Below, piece by piece: positions 1-64,000 of a DNA stretch of 64,000 nt. Numbering within the stretch: position 1 is the stretch's first letter; each line of letters starts with the position of its first letter. The notes under the pieces are model-generated. The model worked only from the letters and a program-made list of their open reading frames with translations. It was not told the origin of the DNA and ran no database searches. This DNA comes from Candidatus Omnitrophota bacterium (GTDB lineage: Bacteria > Omnitrophota > Gorgyraeia > Zapsychrales > JANLHA01): positions 1,178,662 through 1,242,661 of the forward strand of contig OY759724.1 of the NCBI GenBank assembly GCA_963662715.1, in the 5' to 3' direction. Position numbers and translations under genes: made by a program.

Positions 1-3000
1 TATTCTCCCTTAAGGATTCGAACAACCTCATATTAATTTCCCGGTCTTCGAAGAATTTAAAACTGTGCAGCATATAAATGATGTAGATATCCGGGACCAT
101 GGCGGCGGCAAATTCTCTCTTTTCGATAAATTGTGTGTCCCTGGAGCTTATTAATAACGCCCCCAGCCCAGCGGAGAATCCGAACCTGAAGAAATAACGT
201 CTGGACATCTCTGCCTTCCGCGGCATATCGAGAATGGCAGAGAAGGCGCTTCTCTGCTCCGTTGTTCGAGTTTCTTTCTCTTCTTTCACCGGACTGGATG
301 AAGATGACGGACGGGCCTGTTCCGGCCAGATCGGCTGGTCGTTATAATCCCGCACCAACCGGATCGTTGACTGCGCCAGCCGGTAATAAATAGAGTCCGC
401 GGCAAAGACACTGCCCAGTTTAGGCATTTCGGACCCGGTGTAGGCAGAATATTTTTTATTCATCGGCTTAAGCTTTGTCTTCACCGCAGCCTGATAAAGC
501 CGGCTGTCTGCCGACGATCCCTGTAAAATGCTTTCCACATCAATCAGAATCACGACAGCGTTTATAAGATTATGGATATTCTGCATAGCCGCATCGCGGG
601 CCGGATTAACGATATACCAAATATGCAGCAGGAGGCCGATGGCGCCATCCCTGATTTCTCCCTCTCCCCGGCCTAAGATGACGCGCAACAAGAACGGTAA
701 AGCAGCGAACAGATTCTTTCTCAATTCTTCAGAATGCCGAATGTTCTCGATTCTTCTGCCTTGCTGCCAATCTGACAAGCCGGCAAGGTCGGCGAAGTAT
801 TGGCGCATGGTCCCGACTTTTTCTTGCCAGGCAGCGCCTTCTATCTGTTCCAGGCGGTCGGCTACACCCAGTAATTCTGCGCGGGCAGCCTCTGATTGCT
901 TTTCGACTTGATCCTTCAATGCCCGAGCCGCAATAAGTTCGGAAGAGTCCTCCGGCTGACCTTCCCGATCTTGCTCCGGCATTTGAGCCGGCTCAACTGT
1001 CGGAACAACCTCTGTTGTTTCAGGAGAAAGGGCCTGTTCACTCACAAACAATTCTGGAATCTTTAAGGCCACCGTATGATATACGGCTTTGACATTGTTT
1101 TCTGTGCGGTGTTGCATTTGCAGGTGTTCGGCCGGATAGCCGGCGGCATTCAACCCGATCATCATCAACTCGGCTGTCATATCATCTGAATTAAAGTAAA
1201 AAGCTTCTTTTAAAGCCGCGCGGGCTTCTTTACGCAGCCGGGAAATTGTTTCTTTAACTTTCGGTACGGCTCTCTTGCTTTCGTGGTAACGCGCTAAAGT
1301 TCGCTTTTCTTCTGCTTCAATCAGCTCTAATGCTTGAATAACCGAATCAAAACTCTCGTTAAACGCACGATCCAAAGCATCGAGCCATTCCACAAGGACT
1401 TTTAGCGTCCGGCTGCGAACGAATAATTTTCTGAGCAATGCTGTGTTCGCAAATACTTTAATCTTTCTGTAAGTCTTTAAGGTCTTCACACAATGTTTGT
1501 GAATAGAAAACATCGGTTTCTGAACAGTCCGGTTACCAGACCGGTAACGTTCGATTTCAACGTTCATCATCAAGGATTCGGTGGAAATTCGATCTCCGCG
1601 GAGCCTGGCCTGCAGAATAACGGAATGACTGAGAATCAGAATGGAGTCCTCTTCCGCTAATCTATCTCTCAATAAGGCCGCGAAAGACTCCGGAGACCAG
1701 GTTTCGAAGGTATGAACATGTACGATAACACAATCAACATGACCGGCCGTATCGTCTGCGGTGAATTCATCTGCCTGATCATAGGATATGACTTCTGCTT
1801 GTCCCCACAGCATTTTCTGTAGCTGCCAAACCGCTGCCCGGGAATATCCGATCGTTGCGATAACAGGTTTCCCGGCCGTCTCTTTATCAAGCAGATGCCG
1901 CATATAAACATTAGCAAATTCTTCGGTAAAATCTGGCCCGCTGAAGTACCGGTAGCCGGCTGCGGCCGACCGCTTCGCCGTCACGTCTCCAACAGCGAAT
2001 TCCCGGACAATGATGCCGGTCAAATTAACGGCAGGGTTATGAAGAACGGCTTTTTCGATATAAAGGGCATATTCTTCCCGGGCATAATATGCGCCAAAGG
2101 TTGCTTCCGGAGACTCTATGAATATAACCTGCGGCGGGCCGCGGATGACGCTTTCATGTTTAGCCCCGGCTAAGAAATCCAGCGCTTCCGCCATATGCCA
2201 CCTGGCAAATTTCAAATCATCGCCTTCAGCGGAGCGGGTCAGGAGCGCCACCTTGTATTGACGGACCATTTCTTCTTTTTGCTCCGCGGTGTAATCATCG
2301 CTCTTTCGCACAGGGGAGGAAGTCATTTCTACAAACATCCCGTCCTGAACTTTGTAAAGAATTCTCTGCTTCTGCGGCAGGGACGTCCACAGGCGGCCAA
2401 GCATTGTGAGCTCTTGACGCCCATAGGCCAAAACAAATCCTTGCTCCGTCATCATCATGGCCCGTAACCCGGCCCCCTGCACCAAAATAATCTGCGTGGG
2501 GAATCCTCGTCTTCGGCTGAAATGGACAAGGATGTTTTCAATCTCTTCAACCTGTTCCCGCATGCCTTGTTCGTATCCAATGATCAGAACAGGCTTGGCG
2601 TCACCCGCCTGCGTCAACATCTGCATGATGTCTGTAAGACGCTTTCTTTGAACATCATAATAATTGTACGGCCTTCTTCCGGCCCAGTTCTTCCGGTCAG
2701 AGTCCGCATCTTCCGAAGGAATGACCTCTTCCTGAATGATAAACACCCAGGGATTCTGCTGCCCGTCTCCGCGCACAGCATTGTAATCAACACCGTTGAT
2801 CGTAAACGATCCCGTTGACACCGGCCGGCCCAGATTAACGGCCCCGATTCCAATCTGACGGTCTCTGAGCCATGTCCCGTGGATAATATCTTTTCTGGTC
2901 GGGAATATGATCATATCAGCCCCGGCTTTGATAACACGCAGATATTTACCCTCAACCTGCTCGATCGTGCCGGGCACAGCCGCGCGCACAAACAGTTCAG

Positions 3001-3040
3001 CGTCGGAAATCAGCCCCCGAACGTTATCTTCCTCGCTGAC
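1..3040 (-). other. Further SSP-delimited modules of unknown function; the giant ORF runs on past coordinate 1
   Basis: Stop-free translation, codon-checked at 1076 to 1141 and continuing to position 1. Junction motifs at about 2310 (MTSSPV) and about 289 (SSSSSPV). Confidence 0.5.
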
Positions 3041-6000
3041 CGGAGAAGAGCTGCCGCCGTTTCCTTCCGTTTCCTTTTTGACGATATGCTGATTCACAAA
3101 TTCGGCAAACTTCAAGGACGGCCCGACCATTAACAAGTCGCCGGCCAAATCGATATCGCTTTCCGATAAAGCAATCGCAAACCGTTTCGCCCAGATATCT
3201 TCCCCGGTATCAAGTTCATGGAACGCTATCCGGGCGAATTCAGGCCGCAAGAATTCCTTTAAGTCTTCAAGCTCGGACAACAATTCCCAGCCTTCTTTGA
3301 CGGATTTTCTGTTTAACCTTGGCAAATGACGTTTTTCTAATATTTTCCGCCTGATGTGGACAATGTTCTTGACGGACCGGACACCCCTGCCGGCTTTTGT
3401 CGTCACAAAGATATCCTTGGGCGTCAACGTCTCCGGCGGAATTTCCTGAGGAGCGACTTTTCTTCTCTTTTTGGTCTTCTTAACCGGGAGGTCTAATCCC
3501 TTATCTTTCAGGGCCGTCCTGACAGCAAACTCAATGGCGAATTTCAAGACCTGATACGGCATGGTCGGGCGGTTTCCGTGACGGACGTTCGTGTATTTGC
3601 TCATAACAGGCAGGTATTCATTTGTGACAGGAGCCCATCTCAAGAACCGGTCAATAGCGTATCCCCATGGCGTAACAACGATCTTGCCCATGGCTGTGGC
3701 GGCATGCATCGTATAGGTGTCCGGCGTCACGACGACATCGGCAGAATTGATAAGCTTGTTCAACCCTTCCAGATCATGCTGATATGTTTCCATGATCACA
3801 AGCCGGCTATCCGGGCCCTGCACTCTTCTGTAGGATCCGATCTTTCTGTTTATCTCTGACCAGGCCTCTCCGGCGATGTCATGTTTTCGGGCTGTTTCAC
3901 CGCTGTCAACAAGCACGGCCAACCGTCCCCCGTAACCGAGGATAATTTCCGAAACGATCTTGTTCATCAACCCGTAATGGTAGTCTTTTCGTTCAGTAGA
4001 GCTGAAATAATTAAATAAGACAACCACCCGTTCCGGGTAACTCAGCTTCAGGCCGGAAGTCATTGTGTAACGCACGGGCTGATCCTGTCCGACCAAACCT
4101 GCAACTTCGGCATAATGCCTTTCCTGGGAATACACGTTAAGGATATGCGCATGTTCGTCCTTAACCTTGAACAGTTGCGTCCCGTCAAAGTAAATGATAT
4201 GTTTTCCTAAAAGAAGGCTTTCCGCATTCTCCACGACTTCCACGTCCCGGCGAAGGGTGTACATGACAGACCGCTGTTGACTTCTCTGTATAGCCCGGAG
4301 GACTTCGTGGCTGGATCTTTTGTCAATGAGGAATTGGGCTAAAACCAGATCATACTGCTGCTCTTTGAGATACTTTGTCAACTTGCGGTGATGATAGGAA
4401 TAAACAACTTTTTCCTGATCCGTGATATCAAAAGTGAAAAGATCGATCTCGTCAAAACCAAACACACGGCCGGCCCATTTCGTTTCCCGGCCTTTCCAGA
4501 TGGTCTTCTTGTTCGGGTGAGTCACCACCGTTACTTCTTCAATGTTCGGATGAACCGCCAGGATGTTCATAACGCCGCTTTCAATAAGCTCAACACCATA
4601 ATCCCGTTTGGTCGGGCTTAAAATAAGCACGCGTTTTACGGACGGCATAATATCTTTCAGCGGCTGTTCAATCAGCGGCAGCTGTGACAGCTCCACAGGC
4701 GAAGACGCAGAGAAACTCCGTGCTTCTTCCGTTCCCCGGCCATTTTGTGCCGGGCTGAAAACCGATATTGGGCGATATATTACTTCCTGCTGAGAAGGCT
4801 TGTTGAGGCTGCCGGTAGGCGGGCCGCGGTTGATCACAGAGTATTTTAAGGATTCCTGAACATATTGATGCTCATGCCCTGCGCTAAACATCACGTACAG
4901 ATGTTTGATCAAAGCCCATGCTTGGACGGCTGTATAAGCTACGGCCTTTCCGGCTTTCATAAATGAAAGCCCTGTTTGCAGTGTTACGGCCAAGCCGGAA
5001 GCTCCGCCCTGCGGCAATCCCGAATCCGGTTGTTCCTGACCTTTTCTCAACGGCCAGCTTTGGGTCTTCCCGGCAGCTCCCAACCACAGGCCCGGCATGA
5101 ATACCGGAGCATACGGACCGATACCGACCGGGGAACTGACAGGTTTTTGTAGGGCCGGAGCAGCCTCGACCGGGATGTTCACCGCTTCATGACGAATATC
5201 TTTTGCGCTATCCGTCTTATCCGTCTCCTGCCGTAACACCGGCGAAGATCCGTTATTCGAAGAACCATTTTCAGCAGAACTATTAAAGGTCTCATCCTGC
5301 GCCAAACGAGCGGCGGCCTGCCATTCGGCGTCCATCCAAAAATATTGCGCTTGACGGATATCTATCCCGAAACGGCGGATGAGTTCCGCCTTTGATGCCA
5401 ATGTCAACCAATTAAGATTTAACGGCCCGCCAATTTCTTTCTTAACCAATGACTCCAAGACCAAGGTATAAACATCTTCAGCTTTCATGGGATAGCGGTT
5501 CTCTGTCAGCAGATCCCGGGCCTTGAACTCCAGGATAACAGGGGCAAATTTCTCTTCATCCGGTCTGGCTTGCTCCTCGGTAGACATGAAGGAGTTCATC
5601 TCTTTCAAAGAAAGCGTCGGGCGATAGTCATCATCCGAAACAAATTGTCCGGGAACACGGTTCTGCTGCATAGCCCAGAATTCTGCCGTCCTGCGCTGTC
5701 CGGTGACTGAGTTCTCCCATGGATGGCCGGCCTTGGTTCCGTCACCAGCCAACCACGTGCGGACCAGTCCGGCAAGGGTGCCGTGATAAAGGACCAAATC
5801 TTTTTCCTCACTCACAATGGGGGAAGAACTGCTTTGGGCCGAATTAGCAAGGGTCAACTCAACACCTTCAGCGTTATCTTCTATAGTTTTAGCGGATTCA
5901 AGCGGGCTGGAAGACATAAAATGTTTATTATTCAAGAATGCGCGGATTCCATTCACCTGTTTCTTCTGACCTTCATAGAAGAGGATCAGATCCCTTAAAT

Positions 6001-54000: not shown

Positions 54001-57000
54001 TCCTGTCTACGGCGGCTGCTTCTGCGGCAAGCCGTTCTTCCGTTTCTTTCGCGATCCGCTCTTCGATCTCGGCGATTTCGGCTTCCAGTTCGCGGATTCT
54101 TTCAGTATATTCCTCAATTTCTTTCTGGGCTTCTTCCGCCTGTGCCGTCAAGACCGGCAACATATCAATGACCACCGTTGACTTCAGAGCCCTGAGCTCT
54201 TCACTGATATATCCGTCTTCCTGTGAATAGTACTGGATGGTTTCTGATTCCAGACGGCCTTCATACTGACCGGTCAGATATTGCGGTGAATAATACGGAT
54301 AACCTGCGCCTTCATACTCAAGGTGCTGATCTGTCGTTCTGTATCTGTCAGAGTGATCCAGCGTCATCAGTCTTTCATATCTCTCATTGCTGATGATCTG
54401 GTAATCGAACAAGGTGCCCTGCCGCAGGATTCTCACCCAGTTGCCGCTCAACCGGAACTGTTTGACTTCGTCTTTATAATCCTGGCTCAGTTCGATGACA
54501 ATGCGTCGGTTGCCGGCGATATCGACAAACGTGTCGGCCTCGCGGGTATCCGGCGTTGCCAGACGTGACAGCATGCGCGGTCCGCCGAACCTGGACAAGG
54601 ACCACTGCAAAGTCCACTTAGACCCGTATTTATCCATGAACGATGTCAACCGCTCCTTGATTTCCCCGGCCGATAAGTCAACGGCTTTGTCTTCGCCGGC
54701 CTCACGGAGGAGTTCGCTCAAGAAGCTTATGGTCTCGGCATTGAAGGACACCGTCTCGATATAGGAGGCGATGTTCTCGCGGTCAACCGCAAAGATATCT
54801 TTCAGCATCTCGACCTGGTCTTTTGCCGCGAAGAGCGTTCCGTGACCGTTGCCCATCGGAATACCGAATTTATCTGAAGAAATTTCTTCGAACAGATCTT
54901 TTCCGGAAACATCTTCGCTGCTCCTTGCCGCCCCGAACTCGATGATAGCGCCGTCATATTCTCCGCCGACAACCACAAGTTTGCGCAATTCTTTACCGTC
55001 TTCGTCATAACGTCCTAACGGAACGAAATCTATGGTTCCGTTAGCCAGGTTGGAATCCGTTAACTCAAGCAGCGTTGCCAACGTTAAGCTGAACGAACCT
55101 GTTCCTTTTAACCGTAATGCGCCAATGTTGCCTTCGATGACGGCCCCGTCATAAATTCCGCCTCTCACGACCGTTCTGGTTACGCTTTCTCCGTTAACCG
55201 TAACGCTCTCGGTCTCAAGATAGCCGTTGCTCTTATCCCCATCCGCCAGGATTTCCAGGATGTCCTTCGTCAATCTCACCGGCTCGGCATTCTCCAGCAT
55301 CAACATATGAGAACTGCTTAACAATTCGAGCTCTCTCCTCATCGTCATTAAGTTGTCGTCCACAAACACGGCCTGGTTGTATCCTTCCGGCATCTCATTT
55401 CTCGTGTCTTCGCTGAGATCTTCGAAGTCTTGCGGCAATATGACGCGGGCCTTGCCCTCTTTCAGGTCAACCTTATACTCTACTGTCTCGCCGGCTCCGT
55501 TGACGTAGGTCGCCTTCATGTAGAAGGTCACCTGCTCTGTCTCTTCATTGATCGTACGGAAAATACCCACAGCATTAAACTGTTCTCTATAGTCTTCATA
55601 AGTGTCTCTGATGGACAAGCCGTAAGAGAGATCTGCTTCTGGGATGGCAAACAGCGGCGTACCGTCCACTAATTTTGCAACGCCGCCGAGGGTTTCCGCC
55701 GTAAAGGCCTCGATACCGCGGTCGACCAGATCAGCGCTCGGGATCACCACATCGCCTTGCGGAGTAATGGAAAGGAGGATATTGCTGTACACCGACTTCC
55801 GGCTCTTGATCAATATCCCTTCGATTTCTTCGAATTGATCCTCTTCCAGACCCGGGAACCATGCCTTGAATTCCGCATCCAGCTCTTCGAATTCCGGAGC
55901 CACCCGCATGGCTTCCGATACATAGCCTTTCTCGATGAGTCTCGGAATAATCGTTGCCGCATCAAGCCCGGCTCTTTCAAACGGCTGGGCTGTCAGGATG
56001 CCGCGGCCGGAGCTCAAGGTCATCTCACCCGTGCCGTTGAGGTAGCTGCCGAAGATCTCTTCATCATCCTCGTTGAATCCGGTGGCCACGCCCAGCAACC
56101 GTTTATTTTCTTTATCCTGATCTTCAATATCCTTGCCTTTGATGAGCCGTCTTAACTGCTCCCAGGCGACAGAAACAAAATCATATTTAAGGTTGGCAGA
56201 CGGCTCACCGGTTGTGGAATATCGCGCTTCATATTCAAGTTCTTTCGTAATGTTTCTCCGGACACTGGCGGTCGCGCCGTAATCGCCGTACTGGTTCACG
56301 AAGGCTCCAAGGCTGATGCCCTTCTTGCTATACTGCACGCCATATGTTTCAAGATCATTTTCCCTCTGGTAGTAACCGGAGAACGGCCCGACGTTGCTTC
56401 TCAGGCTTAACCGGTCAGAATCGCCGAAGGCCTGATCCACGGACATGCTGAAAGTCTTCCAGCTGTATGTGGCCCCTAAGAGCGCGTAATACCGAGTGTA
56501 ATCCTCCCAGAGGTCATGGACGAAACCGTCGCTTTCTTCCCTGACCCCGGAAACGCGTACGCTGAACTGATGTGCGCTATTCTCATTTGTCAAAGCCTGC
56601 TCGATTGTGATCTTCTGGTAATTGACCTTGTCATCAACGCCGAACGTGAGATCTTGTTCATCGATCGCCGTTTGCCCGGTCAGCGGATCAACGATATAAA
56701 CATCTCCCACCTCGGCTCTGTATCCATCTATGTACCCGGCTTCGGCGCTGATGGTCGTCTTGTTTATCTTGACTTCGACATACCCTTCGACACCTTTGGT
56801 TTCCATCTCTTCGCCTTCAACATTGAATTTCCAGAACGGAGCGAGACCGGCATAGACTTCCGCGTCGCCGACTTCCGTACGGTAAGCCAGGACGTCCACC
56901 AGGAGGATAGCGGATTCTTCCTGATCCTCACCGTCATCCGGGTCGGCGGCGTTCTGCAGGTAACGGTAAGATTCTGTATAACCGACGGAGAGGTTATGGC

Positions 57001-60000
57001 TAAACGTCGTATTGTCTGCGCCGGAGAGGTCAACGCTCGCCCGGACGTAGCGGTTTTCAGGAGCGTTTTCGTTCTGAGCCTGGAAGGTTCCGGCTTCCAA
57101 ATCTACGCCCGGAACGGCATTATGAACCGAGAACTGCTGGAAGGTGACGGTGGCTTCACCGTTGAGGTTGACCACGTCAATCGTGCCGGACTGAATCACC
57201 GGCTGGCCGTTGACCATGGCCACGCGGCCGTAAAGTTTCTTGTTCACGAACACTTCATCGCCAATCTTGATCACCGGCGGCGGTGAACGCGTCATGCGGG
57301 CGATGAAGTTGTTGATGGCTCTAACATGTATTTCTTTGTCTTCAACGCTCTCTGAACTCTCTTCAACAGCTTTGATTAGGTACTGTCTCAAGGCGACCAA
57401 TTGATCGTTATAGTCATTCGCCGCATCGGCAACGGCATTAACCTGCCTCTTCGCGTCGAGTTTAAGCTGTTCATAATCCTCCTCAGCCTCCGCCAGCTTG
57501 TTGGCTTCTCTGAGATTGGTGATCTCAGCCTGAATCATCGGCAGCAAGCCGGCCGTCATCATATCAAAGGCAGGATCGCGTCCTTCTCCTGTTCTCTCAT
57601 CAACAGCTTTTAACGAAGCCAGGGCGTTCTCGGCTTCTCTGTCCAGGACATCGCCGATTTCCTCACCGGCGCCTTCCTTGAAGTACTGGCCATTAGCGAT
57701 TAACGTGTTGATCTCTTCTACGATCCTCAACCGCTCCGTCAAGATAGCCTGGTTCGCTTCAAAGAAGGCGATCTTGCGCTCAATAATCTGATCCACCGTC
57801 TCACTGGACCGACCTTCCTGCAGGGCCAGATCTCTTTCGACCTGTCTGTGAACACCGTAGTCCGGATTGTCATGGAAAGCTCTTTCCTGGGACAAGGTCG
57901 GGATAAACTCGTTCACGAATTGTGTGGTGGCTTCGCTGAGAGGCCCGGGTCCGCGGTCGCCGTTGTAAGCCACGACTGTTGACAAGTATGTCTCTGCTTC
58001 CGCCGTACGGCTGTATCGGCCCATGGTCTCTTTGGCCCGCGGCTGGTCATCATCAATATGCCAGTATGTCTTAACTTCCTCAATCGTCTTGACCTTTTCA
58101 GGATCTTGTCCTGCCTTGCGCTTAATCGGGATAATGAAGAATTCATCGGTGAAATCAACGACATTCAGTTCGATCGACCTCCGGAGCAGGGATTGTTTTT
58201 CTCTGAGGAGGCCAGCTTCTGTTTCCGCTAATTCACGGCGGCGGTCTAACATGCTGGTGACTGTTTCGGCGGCAATATTTCCTCCCTGATCGCTGATCTC
58301 ATAAAGTCTCTGATAGTAGCGCAGTTCTTGCAGGTTCCGGTTGGCTAAGACCAGCTCTCTGCGGGTGGCGGACAACCAATCATTGATCAGCGCATTATAA
58401 TCGCTTTGGCCTCTCGTATCCCGCTCTAAGCTTTCCAGCTGCTCGATACCTTCTTCCAGGCGCTGGATATACCCCATTCTCTCAATGTCATCCTTGCCAT
58501 GAGCTCTATCATATAAGCCGTCATCGCCGGTAATGCCTTTGGATCTGTCTCCGTAATACTGGATGCCTTCCCAAATTTCTTCGCGTTTCGGCAAGAGGTT
58601 CTCGAAATCTCTTTCATCCCACAAGGCCTCTATGGCAACCAGACGGCCGGGTTTCGGATTGCCTTCGTCGTCATATTCGATTTCTCCCGTGATAGGATCT
58701 AACTCATACGGCCCTTCAATGGACTGAATCTGATAGCCCGCTCGTGTAATGGACAGGTTAACAGCCGCTTTCCAGCCTTCTGTGTCACCTTCCTCCGGCA
58801 GGTTGCCTTCGGAATCTCTTTCTCCCAACCCTAAGCCCTGGGCGGCCAAGACCATGTTCTCGGAAACGCCGTTCTGCAAGTTGCGCAAAGTCGTCAAAGC
58901 ATCGGCGATATCAGCCAAATCTGTTCTTAAATCTTCAGCCGTTTCTACGCCGAACAGCGAGCCTGTGCCTCGCTCACGGTATTCGTTGATCACATCCGTC
59001 AAGACCTTAACCACATCACCGTCTTCTTCCTCGATCTTTTCTCTTAATTCGGCAAAGTATTTCTCACCGCTGACGTCGTTAGGATCTTCGGAAAGGGCGA
59101 TCATTCTCAAATATTTCTCCAAGGCTGTCCCTTCAATCAGCTTGAAGTCTTGTTCCGCTCCGCTCTGCAGGAAGCTCTTCCAGGCGGCTAACCGCTGCTG
59201 GACAACGTCATCGTCTCTTTCAACCATTTGTTTCTCAAGCTCCTGCAGTTCATTGTCCAGCGTCCCCAACATGGCATTCAGTTCATCGACCAGGCCTTCC
59301 TGGCTGTCTCTGGCCTCGGTGAGCTTCGCTATGATCTCATTCAGAGCCGTATCCTCGCTATCGAGTTTTAACAGGGTCGCCAGTCTCTGGATGTTCTGAA
59401 TATCGGCCTGAGAATACTTCACCTGGTCAAAAGCGGATAACTCTGTATTCACTTCCGGTTCGGAAACCGGCAGTTCAACGCCGTCTTCGACATCCATGAT
59501 CGGAGTGCGGTCTGTATACTGATATGTTCCATCGGCATTCTGGACAGCGACCAGGTTGCCTCTGTCAGCCAGTTCATTGTAAACCTTGGTGAATCCTGGA
59601 CCGTATTCGAATACGCTGACGTTTCCTGTACGGCGGTTGATCAGCAGGGTGTTCGGCAGCACGTCGTCCGCCTGGTACTCGATAATCTTTCTGGCCACTT
59701 CTGTCTGGCCGTCCTGCTTGGTCCACTGCATCAGCAGAGACATATATTCATCCTGCTCGCGGCTGATATAGTCGTTGACGATTTCCTGTTCGTTGAAGAT
59801 ATAGCGTGAACCTTCTCTCGGGTTGGATACCGAATGAACCATGCCCACCGGAACGCCTCTTTCCGGTCTCAAGAAGAGGACGCCGACCTCACCCTTGATG
59901 GTTCTCTTATCCTGTAATGTCCAGTATTGTGTGCTGACTCTGTCTTCCTCTTCCCTCAAGGAGACGACCTCGTTGTCAAGCTGGGCACCGCCGATAACCA

Positions 60001-63000
60001 GTTTTCTGTACGGCGGCAGGCGGGTCTTCTTCACAACCTCGTCCGCCGCATACTTAATGGCGCCCTTCTCTAAGTTCGTTAATATCGACTCGTTGGTGAC
60101 TGTGCTTTCCGGAATAGCGATCAACATTTCCGAGAACTCTTTATCACGCACAATCAGAATGGTCTGATTCTCTGAGGCCTCAACGATCTCGGAAGAGTTT
60201 TCAATTCTTAACGGATCGGTTACGCGGACGTTAACGATACGGGCCGGTTCCGTCATTTGGTCCGTCGGATCAAAGACCACCATATCGATGCGTTCGCCGA
60301 TTTCGGCCGGGATACGACCTAAGATGGCATCGACTTCCCTGCGGCTTAAGTCGGCGGCATTGTACTGGATTCTTTCACCCCGGTTGTTCAGATATCCGCT
60401 TTCTTCGATCTCGTTCAAAATGGTGTTGTAGATGATCTTGGTCTGTCCGTTCACATCGGCTGTGAGCGTTCCTTCTTCAATATCCAGGAGTTGATCCTGC
60501 GTCAGCTGGTCTGTCCTCAGATAATTTCCTTCGGTGTCATAAACAGCCATCAAGGCCGCAATATCATCTGCCGGATTCGTATGCATCCAGAGGTTCAGTT
60601 CAGCCGGCTCGGCTCCGAAGATCACGATCGGATGGACATAGCGGACTTCTTTTTCTCCATTATCTCCGCCTTCACCGCCGTCCGAACCGCCGATTTCGTT
60701 GATGATAAAGTGCGGATCAATTGCGACTTCAACCGGGTTGCGGCCTAAGTAGTAGGTCATGCCGTCACGCTCAAACAGTTTGTTCGGCAGCACGGCCGGC
60801 AGGTTCTCTTCGAAATAATGCTCGGCAATGATTTCCAGTGTCACCGGGTTGATGCTGACAGCCACCGGACGGGTCTCTTTGTTCTTGCCGAACATCGCCT
60901 CAAAGAGTCTCTGGTTAAAGACCTCGGACGGCAAGACATACATTTCGCCTTGCTCTCTGTACGGGAAGCGGTTGACCGGATCTTCCATGAAGGCTTTCGT
61001 GACCGGGGTCTTCGCTTCCTTCAGAGCCGCGGATGTCTCTTGCAGGGTTTCTTCCAGCTCTGCCCTTTCAGTCTCATCTGTTGTCTGGCTCAACTGGGCC
61101 TGTATCTGGACAATCTCTTCCTGCAATTCTTCAACGGCTTCGATGTTATACCAGTAGCGGAGCGTGATGAATACCGTTTCTTTTCTGTCTTCCGGATCCT
61201 CGGCTCTCAAATTGTATCGATACCCGAAATCAAACCAGTCTGCCGGATAAACATTGTCCTCTATTTCAATTGTTTCTCCTTCTTTTCCTCTCTGAACAGC
61301 ATAGATAATGCTCGGGTCTGTGTTCTTTTTAGCCTCTAAGGTATAATCGACTTCCCGTCGGCCGATGAACGGTACGGCCGGATATTTATGGCCTTCGTAA
61401 ACTGAATCCTTATCAGGATCACCAAAGATGCTCCATACGCGGCCGAAAACTTCCTGGACAAAGTCGCCGATCAAGTGCGACAACGGGATGTCAGCTTTGC
61501 GGCCCGTGCGGATATCAGAGAACTTGGCTTCCGTGCCTTCATCGTTAAGCGGAATAATTTCCGGACTGGCCTTAAGCTCTGTTGTCAGATCCACGAACGG
61601 CCGCAAGACGTCCAGGGCTCCGCGGGTCTTATCCAGTCTCCAGAAAGGATGTTCTCTCTGAACCGCGATACCGCCCACGCCTTCCATGTTGAGGTAAACC
61701 TTCTCCATGCCTTCGTTATAAATTTCTGATGCGGCCTGAGCCCAAGCGACATAAGTGAAGGCTTGGGTAGCGATGGAAGCATCTGCAATGCTTTCCGCCC
61801 CGGTGGCCATATTGATAATCTGGGCATATTTATTGAGCGGTGTATCGAGCCCGATCATGAAATCAAGCGTGCCGTCTTCCCAAAGCTGGATGGAATGCCC
61901 GAAAAGCTTGTTGCCCGGATTCCAGTTGATACCGATTCCGGCGAAGAGGCTGGCCACCTTCTGCTGATCCTGCTGGGTCAATCCATTGGCGAAGTTTTGC
62001 GGCGTGGAGGTGAGAACCTGGTTATAAACGTCAAAGACCTGATATAAGGCTTCCTGCCGTCTGCGTTCATCGTTACGGGCATCGCCTTCTGTCTTCATCT
62101 GGATCTGTCTCAGCAGTTGTCTGGCCTTAAGGATATCTTCTTCTAATTCCTGAATACCTTCGCGGACATCTTCTAATCTGTCTTCCGGTGTCACTTCTTC
62201 CGGAGCGTATCTGCCGGCTTCAACGTTAAAGAGTCTTCTCTGTTCACGATCTATCTGCTGGCGGATCTTCTCTGTCTGGACTTTCGTCGTTTCGCCCCGT
62301 TCGCTTAAGACCTGAAGTTCATCTTCTTCCAGGTACGGATTCATGAGCGACAAGGTCTCATCATTAATCTTCAGCTTAAAGACATATTCGGACTGGGCTG
62401 TTGTCTCGGTTCTAAACGTGCCCGCCAAGCCCAGGATCGTGCCGGCCTTGATCTCCTGGCCGACCAAGTTAACGTTGGTGCCTGTGAGATGACCGAAGAT
62501 CTGCTGGACTTTGACTGTCTTGCCTGACCCTTCTTCCACTGTTTCGGATTCAATGATAATTTCTTCACCGAACGGACCAGGCTCAACGCTAATCACCGTA
62601 CCATCCATATAGCTCCGGACTGTGCTCTGTTCCGGCACAATATGCTTCACAAACAGGCCTTGTGCTCTGATCTGATATTCAGTATTCACAATCAAGCCTT
62701 CCGTCGCCGCTGTTGTTTCCGGAGTTTCTGACGGCACAACGCGGCCGGCAAGTTCTGAGGCTACAAATCTCGGAGTATCAATATTATCGAATTCATCAAC
62801 CAAGGCGTAAATTGGGTTCTTGCTGGCAAACCACAGCATCGTTTGCATACGGTCGACCTCGGCAACTTCAACCGCCTGTCTGAACAATCGGTAGACAATC
62901 TGGTTCAGCTCTTCTCTCGTCTTGAACTTGTCTTCCTGCGAAACAATGAAGACCATACCTTGTTTCGGTCCGACCGGCTCATCGGTAAAGGATTCCTCGT

Positions 63001-64000
63001 CCAAGATAGCGTTAATGTCTGTTATATCTGATTCAGTTAAGTTTGTTAACGGCTCAACGCCATCTGTTGTGATCTTCATCAAGCCGGCGCCGGTTCGGTA
63101 AATCAGGTACGGATCCTGCTGATCCGGAGTGGCGACGCCGGCGCCTTCTGTTCTGAACTGTGCGTGATCATCGATTCTCAGGATCGACATGACCGGCAAG
63201 GCTTCCTTCAGCTCAAAGTTCTGCTTAGCAATCTCCATTCTCTCTCTCAAGCTCAAGTTCGCAATAACGTCATGCTGTTCGACTTTGGCATCCGCCTCCG
63301 TTTCGCTCATAAACCAGATGCCTTCTTCTCTATAAGATTCGTCAATCGCTTTGAATTCACCGTCAAGTCTGCCTAACCGGGTCGGGACCGTTACCTCTTG
63401 TCCGCTGGTCAACCGTGTTCTTAACCGGCCAAGATTATCCACATCAAGATTTTCGAAATAGTTCATAATTGTTCTGACATACTTCGGTGTTTCCTGGTTC
63501 TTGGAGACATCACCCTTAATAACTCTCGGGTAATACCCGGCAGAATACCCCGGTCCGGCGTTGTATCCGGCCAAGGTGTACTGCAGAAGCTCTCTTAACG
63601 TAAGGTCTTTGTTCTCATACTTGCTGTTCAACATGGTATCCATAACCTTGGCCACATAAGCGACGCCAACGGTGATATTCTTCTCGCGGTCGAACGCTTC
63701 ACCATAGGACCATCTGCTGTCGATAAGGCCTCGGCTGTAAAGCGTGTTAACCATGGAAGACCAGGTGCCCGGCATGATCTGCATAATGCCTGTTGCGCCG
63801 GCCCGGCTGACAGCTCTCGGTTTGAAGCGGCTTTCCTGATACATCATGGAAATAATGAATTTCTCCAATTCGTCCTTTGTAAATAACGGCTGGCCGTTGT
63901 TGTCTTCAAATTCTTCGGCGACCTGTTTAAAGATCGGGTAGTTCTTCCAGGCATCTTCGAGGATATCATCGAGTTCACGGATATCATGGCTAACCGGTGT
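1..64000 (-). CDS. Internal fragment (about 21,333 codons) of a giant multidomain membrane protein; neither start nor stop codon lies in the window
   Basis: Minus-strand frame with codon low coordinates = 2 mod 3. Hand translation at about 45 checkpoints (for example 1076, 4682, 11762, 13322, 22316, 30002, 36722 to 36976, 40034, 47162 to 47490, 50876, 63962) gave coherent, stop-free protein in this same frame every time. None of the minus-strand ORFs in the supplied track is in this frame, which is expected if the frame has no internal stops, since the track only lists complete Met-to-stop ORFs. Recognisable enzyme motifs occur throughout, all in this frame. Confidence 0.85.
3060..4690 (-). 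other. GT9-family glycosyltransferase domain (LPS heptosyltransferase-like)
   Basis: C-terminal signature KLINSADVVVTPDTYTMHAATAMGKIVVTPWG (compare L-I-x-N-D-S-G-x-M-H-L-A-A-A-L-G-x-P-x-V-x-L-F-G; checked at 3605 to 3770). N-terminal RVLILSPTKRDYGVELIES Rossmann-like start. Confidence 0.5.
7250..8210 (-). other. Possible GT-A-fold glycosyltransferase-like segment inside a large unassigned module (5830 to 8660)
   Basis: GDLDVVVTVPFYSEGDTIDNVLEAI (checked at 8101 to 8200) resembles the GT2 N-terminus. An ATYDADL acidic motif lies about 270 aa downstream, which is further than usual for a DxD motif. Confidence 0.25.
8680..9520 (-). other. HD-domain phosphohydrolase
   Basis: LSLQIAAMGHDIERY (H…HD, checked at 9178 to 9215) and downstream VAFLIRHHDAG (checked at about 8990 to 9040). 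Confidence 0.55.
9854..11525 (-). repeat. Copy A of the 1.67 kb near-identical direct duplication (modules X and Y), 19,733 nt away from copy B
   Basis: As above. Its high-coordinate (N-terminal) edge coincides with an SSP[LI] junction (GSSPLEERETSPRPWNG against TSSPIEERETSPRPWNG). Confidence 0.9.
11830..12260 (-). repeat. 4 to 5 in-frame tandem copies of a unit of about 96 nt / 32 aa (VGASTMMSSTPLTQEEYTAWKQAQAAEEVSSP). A related VGAST(L/M)MSSSPL-EEY-AW unit recurs at about 36130 to 36290 and 42868 to 43230
   Basis: gacatcatcgttgacgcgcccaccgg recurs at 12036, 12132 and 12228; diverged copies at about 11842 and 11943. Confidence 0.8.
13290..13850 (-). repeat. About three in-frame tandem copies of a 213 nt / 71 aa unit (…GEVSSPVAGAGTNNERVKGQGTYTVAAVLLKGETGDAVAAGRSSGVREERSELSERIAGNRTKTTDLLSEA…)
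   Basis: Codon-checked at 13322 to 13381. The plus-strand artefact ORFs at 13344..13532 and 13557..13745 are identical to each other (213 nt offset). A diverged single copy lies at about 37600 to 37700. Confidence 0.85.
13850..14510 (-). other. GHKL-type ATPase domain (HATPase_c-like, anti-sigma-kinase-like)
   Basis: NIAQHGSGFGLILLE … IHVIVLDQGKGF … GGNFGHGLTLT (N-box, DxGxG and GxGL boxes; the last checked at 14041 to 14070). Confidence 0.45.
14520..15490 (-). repeat. Paralogous module copy 2 (diverged duplicate of 17370 to 18340)
   Basis: As above. Both copies begin right after an SSP[IV] junction and end at one. Confidence 0.8.
15500..16650 (-). other. Alpha/beta-hydrolase-fold domain (esterase/lipase-like)
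   Basis: Oxyanion-hole-like PVILFIHGNGRG and nucleophile elbow GVVTHSNGGTIF (x-H-S-x-G, checked at 15961 to 16060). Confidence 0.5.
17370..18340 (-). repeat. Paralogous module copy 1 (about 325 aa, unknown function; AKGEEDEDQLSLFGPTKGQIRK…MAGINAIR…)
   Basis: About 85 % identical at the amino-acid level to 14520 to 15490. The antisense ORFs in the track (14877..15164 and 17724..18011) are also similar to each other. Confidence 0.8.
19040..20280 (-). other. Histidine kinase core (HisKA-type H-box + HATPase_c)
   Basis: H-box ILTHDLRSLLFAV (checked at 19921 to 19980); N/G boxes LKNLISNAYSHAG, ISFRDNGQGF, EDEAHGLGLYLSRKIIEE (checked at 19141 to 19220). Confidence 0.65.
21180..22430 (-). other. 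GT30-family glycosyltransferase domain, KdtA/WaaA (Kdo transferase)-like
   Basis: RKSIVVSACGVGEVINSISLIEALQQTYPDYRIVLLTNST (compare IWxHAASVGE…P…ILLTT in KdtA; checked at 22205 to 22325) and the C-terminal LGGHNPLEPANFAKPVIVGPYTENF (compare GGHNxLEPAA…P…GPH; checked at 21361 to 21440). Confidence 0.6.
22900..23900 (-). other. Radical SAM domain
   Basis: PVIQIMSGCNRGCLICLFG, a canonical CX3CX2C cluster (checked at about 23785 to 23830). Confidence 0.6.
25750..26090 (-). other. Minimal nucleotidyltransferase (Pol-beta superfamily) domain
   Basis: RLVYAFGSSLWSTEPNDIDVVIVAD (G-S-x(9-13)-D-x-D signature, checked at 25865 to 25990). Confidence 0.45.
26400..27960 (-). other. GT4-family (GT-B fold) glycosyltransferase domain
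   Basis: YSSTFEAFGNGLIEGIAAQRPVIVYP (E-x-F-G-x-x-x-x-E-x-x-A motif, checked at 26585 to 26690) plus an N-terminal Rossmann-like half. Confidence 0.6.
28020..28640 (-). other. Class I SAM-dependent methyltransferase-like domain
   Basis: PESRVVSVGPGDYAISLKGAHHVETF (G-x-G-x-G-like motif I, checked at 28501 to 28580) and DVVIMMSVLSYPG. Confidence 0.35.
29587..31258 (-). repeat. Copy B of a 1.67 kb near-identical direct duplication (about 98 to 99 % nt identity with 9854 to 11525); encodes unknown module X (about 390 aa) + SSSPV + most of unknown module Y (about 160 aa)
   Basis: Direct nucleotide comparison. The plus-strand artefact ORFs in the track are near-identical pairwise (9770/29636, 10436/30170, 10690/30424, 10727/30461, 11304/31038, 11345/31079). 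Identity begins at gattgatgccccagttgttcagg and ends at gactagtctccctctcttc. Confidence 0.9.
31380..32080 (-). other. Nudix hydrolase domain preceded by a winged-helix-like segment
   Basis: Perfect Nudix box GHPRIGEAGIKAIQREFQEELGV (Gx5Ex7REUxEExGU, checked at 31685 to 31780). Upstream IIQAFGQQDAVVLRHLARKLGIRTSSLTKLI looks like an HTH. Confidence 0.7.
32620..33400 (-). other. HAD-superfamily phosphatase domain (sugar-phosphate phosphatase-like)
   Basis: Motif I RMILSDYDGTLAA (DxDGT, checked at 33352 to 33400) and motif IV VLVLGDNYDPENALSDIGM (GDxxND-like, checked at 32701 to 32780). Confidence 0.6.
33780..34450 (-). other. Type I phosphoribosyltransferase-like domain
   Basis: KDKTVVVLDDHAGSRLTLLELQYLLLNAGAKRVIILAL (checked at 33901 to 33960): hydrophobic x4, then D-D, then a small-residue loop, as in the PRPP-binding motif. 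Confidence 0.45.
34700..35930 (-). other. Nucleotidyltransferase domain, CCA-adding / poly(A) polymerase head type
   Basis: VKGSVFLYGWMVRDLLRGERPEHLGYLMSED … DLTINRM (checked at 35765 to 35845) matches the G-G-x-V-R-D…D-D/E-D and RDFTIN motifs of PolyA_pol-type nucleotidyltransferases. Confidence 0.5.
36690..37760 (-). other. Module with two predicted TM helices flanking a zinc-metallopeptidase-type HExxH motif (H-E-T-A-H at 37193 to 37207)
   Basis: VLKTLLMISTFVMVLFGFS (about 37480 to 37540), then ALVAHETAHNLYPLSRGLGFVEH, then MFEIPGILALLGTFILLFKL (36797 to 36856, translated codon by codon). The module also holds a diverged copy of the NNERVKGQGTY repeat (about 37620 to 37700). Confidence 0.4.
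37790..38500 (-). other. Arginase/deacetylase-fold domain (UPF0489-like), putative
   Basis: KILHIDAHADAEMTRRY (DAHxD motif, checked at 38161 to 38260) and a downstream FNVLDVDLDVLRGL acidic motif. Confidence 0.3.
38960..39980 (-). other. SAM-dependent methyltransferase, MidA/DUF185-like
   Basis: AKFSVVEMGAGNGTYALNIMSYLKEYQPQLFQALEYVIVEFSSNL (checked at 39781 to 39830): E-x-G-A/P-G-x-G-T-L/Y motif followed by IVE-S. Family assignment is tentative. Confidence 0.4.
40290..40520 (-). other. ACT regulatory domain
   Basis: GKMTLHLPYDRIGLLKDIVAVITQHLGNVHEQKVEGDNLVIDMDI (checked at 40385 to 40510). It matches the D-R-x-G-L-L-x-D-I pattern at the C-terminus of RelA/SpoT homologs. Confidence 0.5.
40780..40990 (-). 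other. TGS domain, as found after RelA/SpoT synthetase domains
   Basis: IRGRQIRSEKYELQNGDIVGINPLTP (codon-checked at 40861 to 40920). It lies between the synthetase and ACT domains in the usual order. Confidence 0.45.
41000..42060 (-). other. RelA/SpoT-family (p)ppGpp synthetase domain (NT_RelSpo-like); no HD hydrolase motif seen upstream
   Basis: ESGVKFSMSSRVKSVYSIAEKFERQEKRAKDDPLYDLLGLHVVVKGEIQDYWEALTLIDE matches the synthetase signature GRxKxxxSIxxKMxRK…IxDLxGxRxI. Checked at about 41540 to 41600. Confidence 0.6.
42100..42790 (-). other. Class I SAM-dependent methyltransferase domain
   Basis: Motif I peptide AALLDIGAGDNAFANTIAA, codon-checked at about 42560 to 42610. Bounded by SSP junctions at 42085 and the repeats at 42868. 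Confidence 0.55.
42868..43230 (-). repeat. Three in-frame tandem copies of a 120 nt / 40 aa unit (VGASTLMSSSPLSAEEYAAYLASKEADTVSSSIKEAAKST)
   Basis: Exact 120 nt periodicity: gagctcatcaacgtggaagcgccg at 42867, 42987 and 43107. Confidence 0.85.
43600..45650 (-). other. Long K/E-rich alpha-helical or coiled-coil region; no enzyme motif found
   Basis: Translation is dominated by E, K, L and A with heptad-like spacing. It ends at the tandem junction motifs KASSSPVLEEVSSPV (43535 to 43580). Confidence 0.4.
45680..46940 (-). other. C-terminal transmembrane bundle of the glucan-synthase module, plus a G/S/N/Q-rich low-complexity loop (about 45830 to 45960)
   Basis: FVASIGYFLRKPFVVISNTTYLLTIVLFGMSLFAGF, LFPLLAITYMSLVYNAFSV, GWVIPSILFVISGTILWM, LFPSLMALASMFAPFLL, ALTTAVIVGLSLLMGGYPYIPLMLYIIVYPL, LVMSTLTVLGLILGLIVNV. 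Then PQNNDNGDSGSSQGQGSDNPQNGGKGGSGSG, then GWFAGAGVSMWLISSFLLPLLPSGFLGLFAFAGAGIFAGSFF. Confidence 0.6.
46950..49060 (-). other. GT48-type 1,3-beta-glucan synthase catalytic domain (FKS1 / callose-synthase-like)
   Basis: Codon-checked peptide at 47162 to 47490: GQGKPMNQNNILRFTRGQIVMVMDMNQDLYLEE…IVGVPEDIFTDEFSPAGAVHAFGDHTFVT…RYHYGHPDF…NEDIFGAY…QAGKGRE…KFGAGAAEQ. It is colinear with the FKS1 hallmarks GKPENQNHAIIFTRGEY-Q-ID-NQDNYLEE / ILGAREYIFSE / AAGKEQTFGT / KLHYGHPDF / NEDIYAG / QCGKGRDLGF / KIGAGMGEQ. It sits between two TM bundles, as in FKS proteins. Confidence 0.75.
49080..50870 (-). other. N-terminal transmembrane bundle of the glucan-synthase module (at least 6 predicted helices)
   Basis: Hydrophobic segments of 20 to 25 residues: VVGGLGGAYLLGILIIGKIVAWI, ATLLGTIVASSYGLIWSGVW, LAGASLVSWLTGVGIVVGLAILVYF, IVMGLSFLAKFVFNLYIW, LPFGNVILLAGAFSVFFMIFLLDIFAYFYLI, FISWPALGIILGGMLALKLLNVILA. 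Confidence 0.6.
50900..62330 (-). other. Large region without the SSP junction motif, probably extracytoplasmic: coiled coils, beta-rich stretches, diverged internal repeats; no enzyme family recognised
   Basis: Translation has long heptad-like E/K/L/Q runs (about 58300 to 59400, 61050 to 61200) and alternating hydrophobic/polar beta-like stretches (about 56500 to 57300). There are no SSP[VIL] junctions, unlike the downstream part of the protein. Confidence 0.4.
51380..52250 (-). repeat. Two diverged copies of a unit of about 70 aa (…WSDVSEKLLHNGWAQRTGLEEIHLIVNLNDVRAEMTEVFGADAKTLLPLLG… / …WEEISEKLLARGWAEPYTDETEIRLIVNPEDIKSSIAEVFGTDADKVLPVLQ…)
   Basis: Visible both at nucleotide level (51400 to 51600 against 51960 to 52170) and in the translation. 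Confidence 0.5.
62340..62690 (-). other. Degenerate LytM / peptidase M23-like domain; the catalytic HxH is replaced, so probably non-catalytic (EnvC/NlpD-like)
   Basis: SYMDGTVISVEPGPFGEEIIIE ... IFGHLTGTNVNLVGQEIKAGTILGLAGTFRTETTAQSEYVFKLKINDETLSLMNPY lines up with the M23 core (xHL..v.VkvGq.VkaGq.IG.vGsTG.stGPHLHFE). The HLHFE position reads SEYVFKL instead. Confidence 0.55.
63480..63970 (-). other. Lytic transglycosylase domain (SLT / GH23 family)
   Basis: Translated peptide MMYQESRFKPRAVSRAGATGIMQIMPGTW (catalytic Glu in ES-RF; AxSxxGAxGLMQ-like core) followed by LAGYNAGPGY (AYNAG motif). Checked codon by codon at 63541 to 63840. Confidence 0.8.

Follow-up and report, generated by a model that had tools for sequence, protein, structure and literature searches.

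The window analysed here, a 64,000-nucleotide stretch of contig OY759724.1 from a Candidatus Omnitrophota bacterium (positions 1,178,662 to 1,242,661), lies wholly inside one gene, and its minus strand encodes 21,333 consecutive residues (aa) of a protein that is longer still. Two-thirds of the window encodes the tail of this protein, some 14,500 aa made up of about 40–50 enzyme-sized units. Along it, a five-residue signature, SSSP[VIL], recurs 57 times and marks real boundaries between modules; these junctions could be points of cleavage or recognition. We consider it somewhat probable that the window holds an internal fragment of a giant gene of the Archaeovorin or multi-enzyme type, whose product combines a membrane core with a tail of motif-joined enzymes and acts as a polyprotein. 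Giant genes are already established in Omnitrophota; the junction signature is possibly new and offers a concrete handle on the fate of such a product. Cleavage of these proteins has been held likely, but with "no information about cleavage points" (West-Roberts et al. 2023, 10.1101/2023.11.21.568195), and because that information is lacking, the literature leaves open whether the product functions as one molecule or as many pieces. Neither the junction motif nor module shuffling was found in West-Roberts et al. 2023, in Nielsen & Lui 2026 (10.64898/2026.06.07.730766), or in full-text searches, with supplements and Kizina et al. 2022 lying outside that scope.

A five-residue motif at module boundaries

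An unbiased k-mer scan of the whole protein returned only five enriched 4-mers—SSPV, SSSP, SSPI, VSSP, and SSPL—with enrichment reaching 177 times expectation. There are 57 copies of SSP[VILM], whereas shuffled sequences contain 0.5 on average and never more than 3. Every SSP tripeptide (57/57) is followed by valine, isoleucine, leucine, or methionine; all sites fall between aa 6813 and 21,235, and the first 6,800 aa, core included, contain no SSP at all. Information content is limited to five positions, [S/V/T/A]-S-S-P-[V/I/L]. The serines of the motif are encoded by TCN codons in some places and AGY codons in others, and the DNA on either side shows no conservation. Selection hence acts on the peptide, and a DNA-level repeat or recombination site was rejected as the source of the motif on the same grounds.

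The copies delimit 56 intervals, 39 of which are at least 100 aa long (median 260 aa, range 119–1,283), the remainder being short repeat units. Eleven domains were used to assess where the sites lie: Rel synthetase, Methyltransf_28, UPF0489, phosphoribosyltransferase (PRTase), NUDIX, GT4-like, radical SAM, WaaA, HATPase_c, DUF4202-like, and GT9. None of the 57 sites falls inside any of them, against 7.6 expected (P = 2.8e-4). Duplications within the protein follow the same borders: the ends of a two-module duplication coincide with motif sites (offsets 0 and +4 residues), and a second, more diverged pair of duplicated modules is likewise motif-bounded.

Similarity between genomes also starts and stops at the motif. 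For the module array, the closest database relative is P0002, a partial protein from Omnitrophota with 57% identity to the radical-SAM module; the similarity begins exactly at SSSPVNG and ends exactly after VSSPV, the flanks are unrelated, and P0002 carries an extra module of around 430 aa between two modules that are adjacent in the window protein. An exhaustive HMMER search with three modules against 1.84 billion representatives recovered 44 proteins. Other large partial proteins, from Omnitrophota where named (P0004, P0009, P0020, P0023, P0025/47, and P0034), contain SSP[VILMA] at 37–66 times expectation, with 26 motif sites in the 7,952-aa P0034. Partial proteins of Omnitrophota are thus the nearest kin of the downstream modules as well. 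In three motif-bearing proteins, all five Pfam domains sit between sites, as exemplified by a receiver domain within a 133-aa module. Domains, duplications, the homology breaks of P0002, and the other homologues thus converge in showing that the motif marks module boundaries and, as in a polyprotein, one recurring sequence stands at the borders of the units. Such junction-bounded breakpoints are evidence that these genes evolve via cassette shuffling, and the motif supplies a rule for cutting the protein in silico into units of approximately 260 aa for structure prediction.

Proposed processing of the product and its alternatives

In the mechanism that we favour, the core would anchor the protein in the cytoplasmic membrane, as its hydropathy suggests, and a GT48-type catalytic region within it probably makes and extrudes beta-glucan, while the N-terminal part with its SLT domain would act on peptidoglycan. 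The tail enzymes, dependent on nucleotides, nucleotide-sugars, S-adenosylmethionine (SAM), or ATP, would hang from this membrane anchor, each module being the likely equivalent of one free-standing protein. Modules are, in this reading, also the units of evolution, and breakpoints fall at the motif when they are duplicated, inserted, or exchanged between genomes. A merely passive linker would hardly be kept as an exact pentapeptide through 57 junctions and in other genomes, so something must recognise it. The motif would therefore be a recognition element, most likely one for endoproteolytic processing, and a giant precursor may thereby yield many enzymes from one translation product in the manner of a bacterial polyprotein.

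Separate products could in principle also arise through internal initiation of translation after each junction. This was rejected, as neither Shine-Dalgarno (SD) sequences paired with start codons (9 observed versus 11.6 +/- 2.9) nor methionine are in excess after junctions; separate products would thus have to arise post-translationally. Post-translational cleavage is preferred because there is no sign of internal starts and because the modules have free-standing homologues. The latter are one module long, measuring 194–269 aa in the case of the module at aa 13165–13357, which they match end to end, and 408–415 aa in the case of the radical-SAM module, and they start with a signal-peptide-like segment.

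Viral polyproteins and MARTX toxins are processed at linker sites, and the analogy with the window protein is functional. As in those systems, one product contains many functional units with a short sequence recurring at the unit borders. The window protein differs from them in scale (at least 39 units), in its enzyme content, and in the lack of any sequence relationship; cleavage is putative here, and no protease was found in the window.

Several points weigh against the polyprotein reading. Searches of Pfam and NCBIfam detected no protease domain in the window, a proline beside the scissile bond is unfavourable for many proteases, and the case for cleavage is drawn from sequence. A short, strict motif could equally be a modification or partner-binding site, which would fit the data nearly as well. 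Structure prediction, which the first-pass annotation had proposed for the translation as a whole, was run across one junction and proved uninformative (mean predicted local distance difference test, pLDDT, of 41 from a two-sequence alignment). The membrane topology comes from a Kyte-Doolittle hydropathy scan, a crude method. Lastly, at the 3-mer and 4-mer level the motif is missing from ten core-sharing relatives in the approximately 3,300 residues past their core, and a motif-based mechanism thus cannot be general to Omnitrophota giants. No other enriched short motif was seen in those post-core residues beyond local tandem repeats in one relative (L009) and small local repeats in another (L006).

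A word-indexed search of 5.8 billion proteins found no homologue of the last 3,233 aa (aa 18101–21333, window 2–9700), where the family matches consist of a weak GT9 and a sub-threshold DUF4202. Given this result and the missing motif in the core relatives, the tail is, as far as these comparisons reach, lineage-specific and fast-evolving, which agrees with the finding that 80% of long-protein clusters are singletons (Nielsen & Lui 2026).

An alternative that we hold to be possible but doubtful is that the protein is never cut and works as a tethered metabolon, with enzymes strung like beads from a membrane anchor and the motif serving as an uncut linker for serine phosphorylation or O-glycosylation or for docking of a partner or chaperone. 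Most giants of this kind are read as membrane-anchored with the bulk of the protein on one face (Nielsen & Lui 2026), and no protease was found in the window. The junction flanks are mildly low in hydrophobic residues (0.26 versus 0.34), as expected of short linkers, and copies of the motif within short tandem repeats, two per 32 aa, resemble a multivalent binding or modification array more than a series of cleavage sites. Passive linkers, however, seldom hold an exact pentapeptide at 57 junctions and across genomes, and because the modules have free-standing homologues, tethering is unnecessary for their folding. Moreover, neither a kinase nor a glycosyltransferase with specificity for a site of this kind is known to us. 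Cleavage and tethering make exact and differing proteomic predictions: semi-specific peptide termini at SSSP[V/I/L] in the first case and junction-spanning peptides in the second.

If the junctions are genuine processing sites, one Omnitrophota sub-lineage may cut a precursor of more than 21,000 aa, and probably more than 30,000 aa, into around 40–50 enzymes. The junction may in that case derive from a signal-proximal L-[S/A/R]-P element, possibly together with a C-terminal -SS, and the products may act outside the producer cytoplasm, for example in or on prey. This fuller scenario we regard as rather unlikely; were it true, it would describe a bacterial polyprotein of unprecedented scale. It draws on the free-standing homologues, many of which, whether standalone or N-terminal, carry L-[R/A/S]-(V)-P shortly behind the signal segment. 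Of 22 hits with such a segment, drawn from two unrelated enzyme families, 17 have the element, whereas chance predicts around 15% per protein (proteins concerned: P0006–P0011, P0014–P0019, P0021, P0024, P0026, P0027, P0033, P0035, P0036, P0038, and P0044). One such protein is annotated as Omnitrophota. The element occupies the place that SSP has in the fused copies, an alignment that is positional only. A C-terminal -SS ends 5 of 45 hits against 0.2 expected, and because four of these five belong to one family, the origin of the junction from a C-terminal SS joined to an N-terminal SP is only a lead. The L-[R/A/S]-(V)-P element, for which NCBIfam yielded no matching model, may itself serve Omnitrophota as an N-terminal signal for sorting or processing that is as yet uncharacterised. 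The LEPR-XLL sorting domain, of which the L[S/A]P element is reminiscent, was rejected since ten standalone homologues gave no NCBIfam match to it at E<=10. The element often follows a cysteine, and examples include CLSPVLS, FLSPRLS, CLAPSLL, ALRPMAA, and SLRVPVY.

MARTX toxins deliver arrays of effector domains released by autoprocessing, and the tail modules could similarly form an exported effector array delivered to the cell surface or to a prey or host cell. We judge this improbable. In its favour, the standalone homologues of two unrelated modules begin with signal peptides, the SLT domain could breach peptidoglycan, and both the Rel-type nucleotide pyrophosphokinase and NUDIX are enzyme types that also serve as toxins. 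A predatory or episymbiotic lifestyle, with a giant protein up-regulated on attachment in V. archaeovorus, would suit such a role. Cysteine makes up 0.07% of the protein, as is typical of proteins exported unfolded: 15 residues in 21,333, with three accounted for by the radical-SAM CxxxCxxC (aa 13404–13411), whilst the remaining amino-acid composition is ordinary and globular. The core-sharing relatives are likewise cysteine-poor (0.00–0.47%, with none in the 7,279 aa of L005), a depletion that neither West-Roberts et al. 2023 nor Nielsen & Lui 2026 mentions. WaaA, GT9, PRTase, the methyltransferases, and the histidine-kinase ATPase, however, look envelope-biosynthetic or regulatory rather than toxic, and for the 12,000-aa tail that is free of transmembrane (TM) segments, neither a secretion signal nor an apparatus for translocation was identified.

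The reading frame and its Omnitrophota relatives

The first-pass annotation had proposed that the entire window is one stop-free minus-strand frame internal to a single gene, and a six-frame translation bears this out. The frame whose codons have a low coordinate of 2 mod 3 contains no TAA, TAG, or TGA in 21,333 codons and neither begins nor ends inside the window, so the gene exceeds that length. The other five frames contain 510–1,325 stops each, with a longest open stretch of 1,044 nt; from their stop frequencies, a run of this length without a stop has a probability between 10^-224 and 10^-594. GC content at codon positions 1/2/3 (approximately 0.55/0.36/0.57) is alike in all 22 consecutive 1,000-codon bins, and because of this uniformity the frame is read as coding throughout and not merely open. 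Embedded RNA genes or ribozymes were rejected, as a window-wide search found no tRNA genes or Rfam families inside the frame. On the plus strand, both the GC and the AT skew stay below zero in each 4-kb bin. The coding strand is thus purine-rich, which is consistent with a single transcription unit. The longest antisense open frame is the 1,044 nt already mentioned, and there is no sign of an overlapping gene.

We regard it as very improbable that the gene is an artefact, produced by chimeric assembly, by the collapse or expansion of a repeat, or by the wrong joining of several adjacent genes. A 1.69-kb direct repeat lies inside the gene (1,690 bp, 98.8% identical, longest exact run 292 bp) and could be a trap for a short-read assembler, and the homologous region of Candidatus Zapsychrus exili is split into four open reading frames (ORFs) of 9925, 3545, 2761, and 7882 aa. 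Against this, 0 stops in 21,333 codons is impossible by chance or random mis-joining, the coding signal is uniform, and relatives from independent assemblies are open across whole 13–22 kb loci. A mis-join at the repeat would be in frame; it would therefore alter the length by approximately 19.7 kb only, leaving the open frame untouched. The variant in which modules are translated separately by internal initiation is countered by the SD counts given above.

Although the first-pass annotation had placed a protein of this size at the extreme of known biology, this is no longer so in Omnitrophota. ORFs of more than 20 kb are present in 77 of 116 Velamenicoccia genomes (PMC10066038), 46 Omnitrophota genes exceed 90 kb with one protein reaching 85,804 aa (West-Roberts et al. 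2023), and a catalogue of 5,761 proteins of at least 10,000 aa extends to 147,155 aa (Nielsen & Lui 2026). The present gene, with at least 63,999 nt open and coding in a single ORF, lies well within the range above 20 kb that characterises Omnitrophota giants. Its suggested affinity with them was upheld: aa 41–6000 are colinear, at 25–61% identity, with giant frames of Omnitrophota metagenome-assembled genomes (MAGs). Size, domain mix, TM content, and this direct homology place the gene in the Omnitrophota Archaeovorin and multi-enzyme giant class.

Archaeovorins, typified by the 39,678-aa protein of Velamenicoccus archaeovorus LiM, are defined as combining glycosyltransferase, methyltransferase, hydrolase, peptidase, and NUDIX domains, SLT being less common among them (West-Roberts et al. 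2023). The window protein resembles them in being a giant ORF, mostly unannotated and with TM helices, in its mosaic of glycosyltransferase, methyltransferase, NUDIX, and SLT domains, and in its direct homology to Omnitrophota giants. Domains of Archaeovorin type comprise GT48, GT4-like, WaaA (GT30) with GT1, GT9, Methyltransf_28, and NUDIX, and the cell-wall-degrading domain of the Archaeovorin kind is SLT (aa 46–151), a lyase and not a hydrolase. It differs in that the window yielded no C39 or S8 peptidase. These are reported near the N-termini of Archaeovorins (West-Roberts et al. 2023) and would here lie beyond the window, which does not cover the N-terminal part of the gene. Nor was there any match in the window to SecA_DEAD, SecA preprotein-binding, HEAT, or TPR (Pfam, E<=0.01); SecA_DEAD and HEAT/TPR are given for "most" Archaeovorins rather than all (West-Roberts et al. 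2023). Conversely, the GT48 core, the SSSP[VIL] motif, and the cysteine depletion are features of the window that West-Roberts et al. 2023 do not mention.

Nielsen & Lui 2026 describe a "multi-enzyme metabolic cluster" class, which the window protein resembles in that many Pfam families tile the polypeptide with none dominant, and in being membrane-anchored and sequence-unique. HATPase_c, methyltransferase, GT1, radical SAM, and NUDIX recur in that class too. Unlike the class as described, in which junction motifs and module borders do not feature, the TM segments here are clustered and the last ~12,270 aa are TM-free.

When aa 4001–9000 were searched against 5.8 billion proteins, the single match was a protein of 3,545 aa from Candidatus Zapsychrus exili (GCA_030765585.1, contig JAVCCJ010000121.1, loci L001/L007). 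Its contig carries four huge ORFs that abut or overlap, of 9,925, 3,545, 2,761, and 7,882 aa. By tblastn, aa 41–5993 are colinear with three of these ORFs at 25–52% identity. Ten further loci emerged when the most conserved stretch was used for pattern scans, most of them from Candidatus Omnitrophota MAGs, and eight are open over the full 13–22 kb retrieved; the GC content of the core-sharing relatives is 33–50%. Zapsychrus and loci L002–L011 share one order of elements—SLT, a conserved region of unknown function, TM, GT48, TM—but have no SSP motif, and their common colinear core stops at around aa 6000 of the window protein. In Zapsychrus, the SLT domain stands at the C-terminal end of the 9,925-aa ORF, and for this reason the gene in the window probably continues for another ~10,000 aa upstream.

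The Zapsychrus split bears on whether such giants arise by fusion. The 3545-aa ORF lies in another frame and overlaps the 9925-aa ORF by 115 nt, the 2761-aa ORF follows a frame change, and the 7882-aa ORF follows a single in-frame stop. Genuine boundaries between genes, programmed frameshifting, or errors in the MAG could each account for this layout. The window contains no marker genes; all but three of the named homologues are Candidatus Omnitrophota MAGs, the exceptions being contigs binned as Planctomycetales (L005), Endomicrobium (L006/L012; WQYI01000002.1 = Ga0123356_10000011, Candidatus Endomicrobium embiratermitis), and Syntrophales (P0025/P0047). Stops are present in the Endomicrobium-binned loci. 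Homologues of the GT48 core or of SSP modules on contigs assigned to other phyla reflect either mis-binned Omnitrophota contigs or horizontal spread.

Conserved core, enzyme modules, and repeats

Pfam/HMMER analysis of the translation, as the first-pass annotation had advised, identified SLT, GT48, and the enzyme domains of the array (Table 1). The GT48 region matches PF02364 at 230.7 bits against a gathering cutoff of 37.2, over ~345 of 819 profile positions, and the FKS1 and GSC2 cryo-EM structures at E=4e-32 in a PDB sequence search. It keeps the family hallmarks GKxxNQN, D-x-N-Q-D-x-Y-L-E-E, HYGHPDF, NEDI, GKGR[DE], and GAGxxEQ. "DAN" is the catalytic motif of FKS1 (PMC12715860); here, DMN replaces it (A->M, with D and N kept), and MDMNQD is invariant in seven Omnitrophota-type sequences. 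As in the fungal and plant enzymes of the family (FKS1, GSC2, and callose synthase), the PF02364 match and conserved motifs are accompanied by TM bundles on both sides of the catalytic region. Unlike FKS1, the window enzyme is bacterial and embedded in a giant protein, carries DMN for DAN, and is expected to have no Rho1-type regulator; its function is predicted by homology. No link between Omnitrophota and glucan synthase was found in the literature search, and the GT48 core is mentioned neither by West-Roberts et al. 2023 nor by Nielsen & Lui 2026.

Around 4,000 core residues have no annotation yet are conserved among relatives, and the core points to a common basal function that couples peptidoglycan cutting with a eukaryote-like GT48 glucan synthase. 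Hydrophobic segments total approximately 16–18, in two clusters and two isolated segments, and the hydropathy scan gave no convincing TM segment in the 12,270 aa after aa 9066. A Gly/Ser/Asn/Gln-rich low-complexity stretch (GPAPQNNDNGDSGSSQGQGSDNPQNGGKGGSGSGRG) at aa 6008–6062 (window 45815–45979, minus strand) separates the final TM helices of the GT48 core from one another.

Table 1. Features of the window and of the encoded protein fragment (residues numbered along the translation).
Feature	Residues (aa)	Window position	Strand	Evidence
Stop-free frame, 21,333 codons		2..64000	-	Stop count and uniform codon-position GC
Conserved core, colinear with other giant ORFs, SSP-free	41-6000	46001..63880	-	tblastn/blastp
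SLT lytic transglycosylase	46-151	63548..63865	-	PF01464 E=4.7e-16; PDB MltC/Slt70; NCBIfam
First hydrophobic TM-like cluster, ~6-7 segments	4380-4970	49091..50863	-	Kyte-Doolittle
GT48/FKS1-like catalytic region	5386-5731	46808..47845	-	PF02364 E=4.5e-68; FKS1 structures; residue alignment
D-M-N (FKS1 "DAN" equivalent)	5536-5538	47387-47395	-	Residue alignment
Second TM-like cluster, ~7-9 segments	5716-6092	45725..46855	-	Hydropathy; conserved in relatives
Lineage-specific array, 57 motif copies, 56 intervals	6813-21238	287..43564	-	k-mer scan, motif statistics
120-nt (40-aa) repeat unit x2.2		42867-43129	-	
RelA/SpoT-type (p)ppGpp synthetase	7470-7596 (module 7307-7993)	41213..41593	-	PF04607; PDB Rel; TIGR00691
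Methyltransf_28/NDUFAF7-like SAM methyltransferase	8045-8289 (module 7993-8498)	39134..39868	-	PF02636 E=1.5e-50; PDB 4f3n, 5ztz
UPF0489/peptide-arginase-like	8556-8652 (module 8498-8746)	38045..38335	-	PF12640; NF052474
Last two TM-like segments	8819-8840, 9048-9066	36803..37546	-	Hydropathy
Phosphoribosyltransferase (ComF-like)	9962-10061	33818..34117	-	PF00156; TIGR00201
NUDIX hydrolase	10714-10857 (module 10634-10915)	31430..31861	-	PF00293 E=1.1e-9
Two-module duplication, copy 1	10915-11496	29513..31258	-	96% aa, 98.8% DNA identity
GT4-type, mannosylglucosylglycerate-synthase-like	12117-12498 (module 12000-12630)	26507..27652	-	NF041101 E=6e-36
Module without annotation	13165-13357	23930..24508	-	End-to-end homology to standalone signal-peptide proteins of 194-269 aa
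Radical-SAM-like module	13357-13789	22634..23932	-	CxxxCxxC; P0002 homology
CxxxCxxC (C13404, C13408, C13411)	13404-13411	23768-23791	-	Conserved in homologues
Kdo transferase (WaaA-like), near full-length	13857-14282 (module 13789-14307)	21155..22432	-	PF04413 + PF00534; PDB 2xci
Histidine-kinase-type ATPase (HATPase_c)	14840-14977 (module 14567-14990)	19070..19483	-	PF02518 E=1.2e-14; CheA structures
Region with duplicated modules, 77-80% identical, motif-bounded	15219-15552 and 16168-16498	14507..18346	-	Self-comparison
In-frame tandem repeats carrying the motif		11898..13820	-	Repeat scan
213-nt (71-aa) repeat unit x2.7, 98% matches		13256-13820	-	
96-nt (32-aa) repeat unit x3.7		11898-12253	-	
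Two-module duplication, copy 2	17493-18073	9782-11524	-	Same pair as copy 1
GT9 (heptosyltransferase-like), partial match	20076-20135	3596..3775	-	PF01075 24.3 bits vs cutoff 22

Roughly 30 modules carry no annotation, and among the others the enzyme assignments differ in firmness. In the WaaA-like module, NF004388 fits within a single module over positions 15–421 of 425, at 177.7 bits against an equivalog cutoff of 438, and PF04413 scores above its cutoff; on these profile matches, the domain is a member of the Kdo transferase family. The NF041101 match lies far under its curated cutoff and denotes family-level resemblance only, and the radical-SAM-like module scores 21.8 with PF04055, below the cutoff of 29.5.

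The two copies of the large duplication lie 19.7 kb apart and differ by 21 mismatches in 1,690 bp; the segment was either duplicated recently within the gene or may be a hazard for assembly. Among the tandem repeats, both the 71-aa and the 32-aa units contain the SSP motif, with two copies per 32-aa unit ('...VSSPVGASTMMSS[S/T]PLTxEEY...'), and related repeat copies occur near aa 6950, 9250–9300, and 17280–17420. One non-colinear match was observed in the tail: aa 20570–20668 (window 2300–2590, minus strand), part of the module at aa 20561–21235, match L001 at 8007–8306 as well as L008. The matching Zapsychrus segment (~100 aa, 34% identity) lies just upstream of its SLT domain, which hints that some tail modules may be relocated pieces of the conserved region.

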